A stretch of DNA of 57,427 bases. Origin: a virus (Duplodnaviria > Heunggongvirae > Uroviricota > Caudoviricetes). Location of the stretch: IMG/VR virus record IMGVR_UViG_2778261297_000008. One strand, given 5' to 3'. Positions 42,847 through 43,761 of the stretch are shown one piece after another. The translations under genes and the position numbers were made by a program. Below the pieces are notes generated by a model. The model saw only the letters and a list, made by a program, of their open reading frames with translations. It ran no database searches and had not been told where the DNA came from. Numbering within the stretch: the first letter of the stretch is position 1; every line of letters starts with the position of its first letter.

Positions 42847-43761
42847 TTAAAATGTTGTATTGATTAAATCAATTGGATGGAATTGTTTATCATAAAAAAT
42901 TAATGTTTGAATGTGATAACCGTCCTTTAAAAAAGTCGTTTCTGCAAGCTTGGCTGTATAGTCAACTAACTCTTCTGTCGAAGTGATATTTTTAGGCTTA
43001 TCTACCAGTTTTAGACGCTCTTTAATATCTTCAGGAATTATTTTATTATCATATTGTATCATGCTAAATGACAATTTGCTTATGGAGTAATCTTTTAATT
43101 TTAAATAAGTTATTCTCCTGGCTTCATCAAATAAAGAGTCGAATGATGTTGGCGAAATCACATCGTCACCCATTGGATTGTTTATTTGTATGCCAAGAGA
43201 GTTACAGCAGTTATACATTCTGCCATAGATTATAGCTAAGGCATGTAATAATTCGTAATCTTTTAGCGTATTAGCGACCCATCGTCTTTCTGATTTAATA
43301 ATAGATGATTCAGTTAAATATGAAGGTAATTTCTTTTGTGCAAGTCTGACTAACTTTTTTATACCAATGTTTAACATACTTTCATTTGTAATAAACTCAA
43401 TGTCATTTTCTTCAATGTAAGATGAAATAAGAGTAGCCTTTGCCTCGCTATACATTTCTAAATCGCCTTGTTTTTCTATCGTATTGCGAGAATTTTTAGC
43501 CCAAGCCATTAATGGATCATTTTTCCATTTTTCAATAACATTATTGTTATACCAAATGTCATATCCTATAATCTGGTTTTTGTTTTTTTGAATAATAAAT
43601 GTTACTGTTCTTGCGGTTTGGAGGAATTGATTCAAATTCAAGCGGAATAATTCAGGGTCAAAATATGTATCAATGCAGCATTTGAGCAAGTGCGATAAAT
43701 CTTTAAGTCTTCTTTCCCATGGTTTTTTAGTCATAAAACTCTCCATTTTGATAGGTTGCAT
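42847..43761 (-). CDS. Uncharacterised ~295-304 aa protein in the post-tfa cargo arm (likely start ATG 43734)
   Basis: Long ORF on the opposite strand in visibly AT-rich DNA; SD GGAGAG precedes ATG 43734; no assignable domain. Confidence 0.7.
   Translation of the reverse strand: MQPIKMESFMTKKPWERRLKDLSHLLKCCIDTYFDPELFRLNLNQFLQTARTVTFIIQKNKNQIIGYDIWYNNNVIEKWKNDPLMAWAKNSRNTIEKQGDLEMYSEAKATLISSYIEENDIEFITNESMLNIGIKKLVRLAQKKLPSYLTESSIIKSERRWVANTLKDYELLHALAIIYGRMYNCCNSLGIQINNPMGDDVISPTSFDSLFDEARRITYLKLKDYSISKLSFSMIQYDNKIIPEDIKERLKLVDKPKNITSTEELVDYTAKLAETTFLKDGYHIQTLIFYDKQFHPIDLINTTF

Follow-up and report, generated by a model that had tools for sequence, protein, structure and literature searches.

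A probable recent nonsense mutation interrupts the lambda accessory gene ea47 at the right end of a lambdoid prophage

The DNA analyzed here, hereafter the window (the whole stretch of 57,427 nucleotides), contains a perfect 47-bp direct repeat at 1399-1445 and 49619-49665, which corresponds to the 3′ part of a tRNA-Thr(CGT) gene, in addition to an integrase ORF (Table 1). The two copies likely represent attL and attR of a lambdoid prophage of ∼48 kb integrated at tRNA-Thr, and they enclose the gene described below together with the cargo extending up to an IS110 element. The locus under study is the accessory, b-region-like right end of a lambdoid prophage.

At this end of the prophage, a preliminary description of the sequence had reported a minus-strand ORF (42847..43761), and the ORF proved to be real, as did most of its described features. 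It runs towards stf (38760-41789) and tfa (41789-42373) in convergent orientation and is thereby antisense to the tail operon. It is embedded in AT-rich DNA, with a GC content of 0.29-0.33 over 42400-44000 versus 0.48-0.62 in the tail genes, and the GGAG sequence upstream of the ATG at 43734 is a good Shine-Dalgarno element, as had been stated. The ORF encodes 304 amino acids when counted from the ATG at 43761 and 295 amino acids from the ATG at 43734, and this latter start is backed by the lambda annotation and by the N-termini (M-x-x-KPWERRL) of 42/42 aligned homologues. The 69-aa ORF described on the same strand (42502..42711) is likewise present.

What did not withstand closer inspection is the proposed protein size of ∼300 amino acids. 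The 304-aa and 69-aa ORFs lie in one and the same frame with a TAA codon as their sole separator, and single-frame translation of 43761..42499 revealed that the 45 codons from this TAA to the ATG of the 69-aa ORF are open as well. The chance of 114 codons of such composition staying open is P ∼ 6e-5, and the other two frames of this stretch contain 8 and 10 stops. Since both ORFs share one open frame, they represent one gene and not two. As to whether the 69-aa ORF is a partner or a remnant, it therefore turned out to be a remnant, i.e. the in-frame tail of the upstream coding sequence, and being part of the same gene it does not qualify as a partner. Nor were the hallmarks of a two-gene system (separate starts and joint conservation) observed, as the 69-aa ORF is in frame and no neighbour is conserved across the 31 homologous loci analyzed below; sequence inspection found no Shine-Dalgarno sequence ahead of its ATG at 42711.

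With regard to transcription signals, a candidate sigma-70 promoter was predicted upstream of the gene, and the corresponding segment is identical to an element that the annotation of phage HK629 places upstream of ea47. A consensus scan for promoters and terminators over 42300-44500 returned no more sites than shuffled sequence. The hairpin located between the convergent tfa and ea47 genes likely terminates transcription of ea47, of the late tail operon or of both.

Table 1. Coordinates of the features identified in the window
Feature	Position	Strand	Basis or remark
tRNA-Thr(CGT) gene	1369-1444		
Integrase ORF	1459-2622	-	
12-bp-stem hairpin between convergent tfa and ea47	42389..42422	.	RNAfold, intergenic segment -16.2 kcal/mol
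ea47 pseudogene (probable)	42502-43734	-	
Native ea47 stop	42502-42504	-	
69-aa ORF	42502..42711	-	inside the 3′ part of ea47
In-frame untranslated 3′ part of ea47, codons 297-410	42502..42846	-	single-frame translation; identical to EC09
Premature stop TAA, codon 296	42847..42849	-	codon-by-codon comparison; GAA in lambda, EC09 and 21220
ea47 codons 1-295, translated part	42850..43734	-	99% nucleotide identity to lambda ea47; PHROG 19262
Supported start codon	ATG 43734	-	mechanical ORF runs up to ATG 43761
Shine-Dalgarno GGAG	43741..43744	-	6 nt upstream of ATG 43734, read from sequence
Candidate sigma-70 promoter TTGACA-N16-TATCAC	43783..43813	-	computational prediction
DinI-like remnant	~44080-44213	-	frameshifted partial pseudogene in EC09 annotation
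HTH (HTH_31/HTH_3)	44416-44775	+	PADLOC CapH 3.6e-10
Peptidase_M78 ImmA/IrrE	44784-45305	+	PADLOC CapP 6e-11
DUF6650-like ORF, 158 aa	46219-46695	+	25.6 bits, just below Pfam cutoff
AbiTii	46797-47717	-	Pfam 5e-44, PADLOC 3e-36
ISEsa2, IS110-family transposase	47890-49167	-	RefSeq annotation of EC09 locus; between AbiTii and attR
IetA, AAA ATPase	50129-51115	+	PADLOC 5.5e-77; just outside attR
IetS, subtilase	51124-53613	+	PADLOC 2.9e-34; just outside attR
NikA-like mobilisation protein	55666-56031		after IetA/IetS

Megablast of 42400-44100 against phage records identified the gene by its 99% identity to ea47 of lambda, HK629, HK630 and lambda hybrids. In lambda, ea47 (NC_001416 22686..23918, 410 aa; NP_040606) belongs to the b region and directly follows orf-194 (tfa) on the opposite strand, an arrangement that the window shares together with the Shine-Dalgarno and upstream sequences. 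The two genes agree at 1228/1233 nucleotides, and the GAA>TAA change at codon 296 is among the 5 differences; besides E296*, the window copy differs by Y334N and E389G in the untranslated tail. Compared to E. coli strain 21220, 4 of the 1233 nucleotides differ, GAA>TAA at codon 296 again among them. The closest relative is the copy in the prophage of E. coli EC09 (NZ_CM169492), a locus that matches the window over 13.7 kb at 99.978% identity with 3 mismatches and shares its prophage context. Over the gene itself, a single base in 1233 differs (G>T at 42849, i.e. GAA>TAA at codon 296), so that in EC09 a glutamate codon leads into a full protein of 410 amino acids (WP_000162951.1), and RefSeq annotates an intact 1233-nt CDS at this locus.

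Family assignments point the same way. PHROG 19262, labelled "unknown function", matches residues 1-295 of 410 with an E of 2e-209, and cluster-mates annotated in precomputed resources carry the label PF26900 (Phage_lambda_Ea47), the Pfam family of which lambda ea47 is the founding member. Homology along the full length, as well as synteny downstream of and convergent with tfa at the accessory end of a prophage, agree with membership in this family, whereas the unbroken frame of ∼410 codons expected of a member is interrupted by the TAA at codon 296. The upstream neighbours, moreover, differ from those in lambda: in place of ea31/ea59, the window carries the DinI remnant, the HTH/ImmA pair, AbiTii and the IS110 element.

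Taken together, these results support a reading in which 43734..42502 on the minus strand is lambda ea47 interrupted by a G>T nonsense mutation (E296*), making it a recent pseudogene with the 69-aa ORF as its unused tail, to which we assign a probability of about 0.85. The finding in the window is thus an already known one, namely the lambda accessory gene ea47 with a fresh nonsense mutation, and the proposal of a new single-gene Abi protein of ∼300 amino acids falls, as both ORFs are pieces of the 410-aa lambda gene. RefSeq at present carries both ea47 fragments as proteins, the exact 295-aa product being WP_233423521.1; we advise annotating the locus as an ea47 pseudogene instead of as two hypothetical proteins.

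The nonsense allele is very rare. The intact and otherwise identical protein was found on 295 contigs, compared with 3 contigs for the 295-aa product. The TAA allele is confined to the window's own lineage, i.e. contig NOMW01000026.1 (GCA_002518795.1), the source of the window or a clone of it, which matches the window over 20.9 kb at 100.000% identity. When 5426 complete E. coli genomes and phage records were searched with a 61-nt probe that has the stop at its centre, 121 of the genomes and 18 records gave a match. Each of these matches shows one mismatch, from which it follows that TAA is present in none of them (0/121 and 0/18). Judged from these comparisons, the mutation would be private and very recent, about one mutation old. 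A repeated origin of the truncated allele was considered and discarded: at one further locus (L011, GCA_024391665.1, 10001-11233), an extra T (+1) in the T-run preceding codon 296 shifts the frame and leads to an identical 295-aa product, and another (L013) merely ends there with the wild-type G. In the former, the frame is back in register ∼230 nt later at an A-run, and its frameshifts are probably homopolymer sequencing errors. That locus marks the T-run before codon 296 as an error- or mutation-prone spot.

Could the stop itself be a miscall in sequencing or assembly, the gene being an intact 410-aa ea47? The substitution lengthens a homopolymer, ACATTTGAA>ACATTTTAA (TTTG>TTTT), and because the T-run grows by the change, a base-call error keeps a small share of the probability. 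Further points in its favour are that the allele is known from one lineage and assembly only, that the two compensating homopolymer frameshifts of L011 begin at the identical T-run, and that the Logan contig L013 stops exactly at the base in question. It is nevertheless improbable, given that the change is a substitution and not an indel, that the contig has been reported from 2 samples, and that only 3 mismatches to EC09 over 13.7 kb indicate an otherwise clean assembly; error is the less likely explanation, and a recent pseudogene is preferred. Granting the stop, the 295-aa protein might still function, either alone or with a C-terminal piece translated on its own, for example the 69-aa ORF. 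Such a split gene could draw on the retained Shine-Dalgarno sequence, start codon and most invariant motifs, on an intact candidate promoter, and on the presence of the fragment in RefSeq as WP_233423521.1. We regard it as quite improbable, since the ATG at 42711 is without a Shine-Dalgarno sequence, the 45 codons preceding it, which encode the invariant D297-R329, would be lost, and the private allele is about one mutation old; in addition, neither natural splits nor forms of ∼295 amino acids stand out among the listed representatives, and the short matches look like contig fragments over arbitrary parts of the protein. Most improbable of all is a bypass of the stop by read-through or a suppressor to give the full-length protein. 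Apart from the intact downstream frame, nothing specific speaks for it, while the TAA is followed by G, a context that terminates translation efficiently in E. coli, the window holds no suppressor tRNA (its sole tRNA is Thr-CGT), and no recoding signal is evident in the sequence.

The G>T transversion at 42849 converts Glu296 (GAA) into TAA, and with a stop at this codon the cell makes at most a 295-aa N-terminal fragment. Across an alignment of 42 homologues, 11/44 invariant positions lie past residue 296 (D297, K301, W305, R306, E325, W327, R329, I344, E347, L349 and R369). In the AlphaFold2 model, the stop falls between the strand 287-293 and the helix 298-314 of one alpha/beta domain (∼253-380). 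Because the missing 115 residues hold a quarter of the invariant positions and the cut lies inside this predicted C-terminal domain, the 295-aa fragment is most likely non-functional. Truncated proteins sometimes retain activity, and the N-terminal 295 residues do hold the most conserved motifs (N35-K52, R83-D91 and R150-W152).

The intact protein belongs to a large family: a word-indexed search gave 454 matches, and with clusters at 50% identity the family counts 1272 representatives at E<=1e-3. Its members are present across Proteobacteria and beyond. Nearly all homologues comprise 400-445 amino acids and align end to end, and the 42-sequence alignment has a mean column identity of 54% with 44 invariant columns. 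The AlphaFold2 model of intact Ea47 is confident (pLDDT 89.1, pTM 0.88) and consists of an N-terminal four-helix bundle (5-89), a mixed middle part and the C-terminal alpha/beta domain. A Foldseek search of this model against the PDB gave no match below E 0.09, and PDB sequence searches with a single sequence or the 42-sequence profile yielded nothing but ElaA at E 0.58. Three weak matches in BFVD (E 2e-4 to 7e-4) to uncharacterised phage proteins of 186-210 amino acids were set aside as uninformative. Neither the intact nor the truncated protein gave a match above threshold in local copies of Pfam-A, NCBIfam and PADLOC, and a vRNAP_dom match (15 bits versus a cutoff of 27) was dismissed as noise. 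The earlier remark that the protein has no recognizable domain thus holds by eye and for these local scans, but not in view of its assignment to a named family (PF26900, PHROG 19262).

The N-terminal helical bundle bears the invariant motif R83-N84-x-x-E87-K88-x-G-D. As had been noted by eye, the HEPN motif Rx4-6H is absent: an invariant lysine is found 5 residues after R83, and an invariant histidine in 0 columns of the 42 sequences. The catalytic motif of the HEPN superfamily is thus lacking in Ea47, with R83-N84-x-x-E87-K88 in its place. The comparison of folds with the PDB disclosed solely a generic resemblance to HEPN-like four-helix bundles, without significance and without Rx4-6H. Relative to HEPN toxins and RNases (PDB 7ae2, 5yep; Csm6 6tug), Ea47 therefore lacks both the motif and an invariant histidine, and no sequence-profile link to them was found. 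PD-(D/E)xK nucleases were considered for the C-terminal alpha/beta domain, which holds the nearly invariant D289 and the invariant D297, K301, E325 and R329; the strand motif of Ea47 reads S-E-x-W-x-R and not ExK, and searches with the whole Ea47 model returned no nuclease fold match.

In long relatives of 575-928 amino acids, the first 400 residues resemble Ea47, and a SEC-C zinc motif and TPR repeats come after them; among the repeats, TPR-S "sensor" repeats score above the Pfam cutoff. The architecture of these fusions, as read from sequence, suggests an effector coupled to a sensor. Among distant members, seven (P0194, P0242, P0252, P0255, P0269, P0217 and P0233; 575-917 aa) carry a SEC-C zinc motif in their C-terminal part, which TPR/TPR-S repeats follow in 4 of the longer proteins (847-917 aa).

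To describe the surroundings of the family, 31 non-contaminant loci were compared, and the two nearest ORFs per side (117 proteins) were scanned with PADLOC at E<=1e-10. No neighbouring gene family is common to the 31 loci, the best one occurring in 5 of them at variable distance; a conserved partner gene was therefore rejected, and Ea47 is taken to be a stand-alone gene. In Shewanella, the homologue adjoins AbiLi/AbiLii (AAA_15 + RloB); in Pectobacterium, it lies in an integrase-bounded island together with AbiTii, FRG, DUF5677, a UvrD-like helicase and Barstar; in Vibrio parahaemolyticus, it is part of a prophage and placed between int and a Lamassu LmuA/LmuB pair, and in Aeromonas, it is a single gene amid housekeeping genes. 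Overall, the PADLOC families encountered in the nearest ORFs were Old, LmuA/B, Drt8, PD-Lambda-3_B, TIR-TM, PDC-M26A and an AriA/GajA-type ATPase. Pfam matches comprised 3 integrases, 3 resolvases, 2 PLDc_2, 2 DUF4238, Hypoth_Ymh, DUF2357 and RloB, as well as enolase, SelA, HSP90, UvrC and TssF. The control set, made up of the most distant ORFs, gave chiefly helicase-type (GajB/UvrD) and GlgB matches, a near-versus-far comparison that is qualitative only because PADLOC counts are given per family and not per protein.

These features make a role of intact Ea47 in conflict or defence plausible, as it is stand-alone, widespread, found in mobile and defence-rich surroundings, and in some relatives fused to SEC-C/TPR modules, and as its neighbours in lambda, Ea31/Ea59, strongly match defence models (see below). 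We tentatively put the intact protein forward as a candidate stand-alone effector of the conflict/defence type, though at somewhat less than even odds. Such an effector would comprise the N-terminal helical bundle with RNxxEK in place of Rx4-6H and a C-terminal alpha/beta domain in which many acidic and basic residues are invariant; in the long relatives this module would be coupled to SEC-C/TPR sensor modules. It is also conceivable, although doubtful, that the family as a whole constitutes an unrecognised single-protein conflict/defence effector whose fold is not represented in the PDB and which is sometimes wired to SEC-C/TPR-S. Against a defence role, several homologues sit among housekeeping genes, and neither the intact nor the truncated protein matched a PADLOC-DB v2 family of known defence HMMs at E<=1. 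With AbiTii-like single-gene Abi proteins, Ea47 shares its stand-alone character, AT-rich DNA, location at the tail-fibre/att end and homologues beside known defence genes, and it differs from them by the lack of similarity to any PADLOC model and by the truncation of the window copy. Hence, the part of the preliminary description that concerned an Abi-typical position is well founded, with the gene at the accessory end, AbiTii 3 kb away, a CapH/CapP-like regulator pair nearby and homologues often beside defence genes; the Abi reading of the gene itself is not, as no defence model matches and the window copy very probably has no activity.

The lambda Ea proteins are early, N-dependent lytic products of the pL operon, which is read through att, and integration at att cuts the b region off from pL. 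In the prophage, expression of ea47 would consequently depend on the candidate promoter. Early expression from pL fits a role during infection at least as well as defence of the lysogen, and intact Ea47 might instead be a phage-side factor of the early lytic phase of lambda, acting, for example, in counter-defence, in the takeover of the host or by modulating virion assembly. Beyond the early, N-dependent expression, this is in line with the position of the gene next to tail genes in phage genomes and with yeast two-hybrid pairs of Ea47 with the tail terminator U (in two vector combinations) and with N (PMC3224144). Nonetheless, we consider it rather unlikely: many bacterial chromosomes carry homologues away from any recognisable prophage, among them single-gene insertions and copies in integrative islands, the TPR-S/SEC-C fusion is typical of cellular conflict systems, 410 amino acids are large for an anti-defence protein, and lambda growth is unaffected by removal or repression of ea47 (PMC10695390, PMC9674246). 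In published work, the gene scored as non-essential in CRISPRi essentiality mapping (PMC10695390) and was replaced by reporters (PMC9674246, PMC11980383), and no phenotype of its deletion, replacement or knock-down has been reported (PMC10695390, PMC9674246, PMC11980383). A literature search for a defence or abortive-infection phenotype of Ea47 found none; with regard to its function, the search yielded nothing beyond the use of ea47 as a non-essential site for insertions and the yeast two-hybrid pairs, and a paper search for PF26900 returned nothing.

Beyond the pseudogene itself, the analysis thus adds to Ea47 that it represents a large stand-alone family conserved along its full length, with a confident predicted structure without a solved relative, which recurs in mobile and defence-rich neighbourhoods and in some relatives is fused to TPR-sensor modules. 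The intact allele is a reasonable candidate for a defence screen, for which E296* provides a ready-made natural negative control, i.e. a natural null beside the near-isogenic intact EC09 allele. If the defence reading were true, one of phage lambda's few remaining orphan genes would turn out to serve immunity.

As for the remaining cargo of the prophage end, the recognisable Abi-type gene there is, by its clear profile matches, AbiTii, 3 kb from ea47, and it is convergent with the 158-aa DUF6650-like ORF. In related prophages (21220 and L011), the prophage end has an intact dinI as the immediate upstream neighbour of ea47, and the HTH/ImmA-AbiTii-IS110 cargo seems to have replaced the 5′ part of dinI in the window. 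CapH/CapP-type regulator pairs, which the HTH and ImmA/IrrE proteins resemble in PADLOC, control some defence operons. The IetA/IetS genes and the NikA-like protein beyond the prophage suggest that a second mobile or defence island abuts it at attR. In lambda (L001, 1289-3753), Ea59 matches PADLOC PDC-M01A with an E of 4e-201 and Septu PtuA with 5e-184, and Ea31 matches PDC-M01B with 6e-113, such that the b region beside ea47 encodes a candidate defence pair of an ATPase and an HNH protein, a pair absent from the present window.

Finally, ea47 at 95-100% protein identity (tblastn; nearly all 98-100%) was also encountered in odd assemblies assigned to Chromatium, Leeuwenhoekiella, Pseudomonas, Streptomyces, Fusobacterium, Neobacillus and other genera (L019-L027, L030-L034, L036, L038, L057, L059, L060 and L064). 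Their contigs are often ∼48.4 kb long or very short, and often of low coverage where coverage is stated; these copies almost certainly reflect contamination with lambda control DNA.
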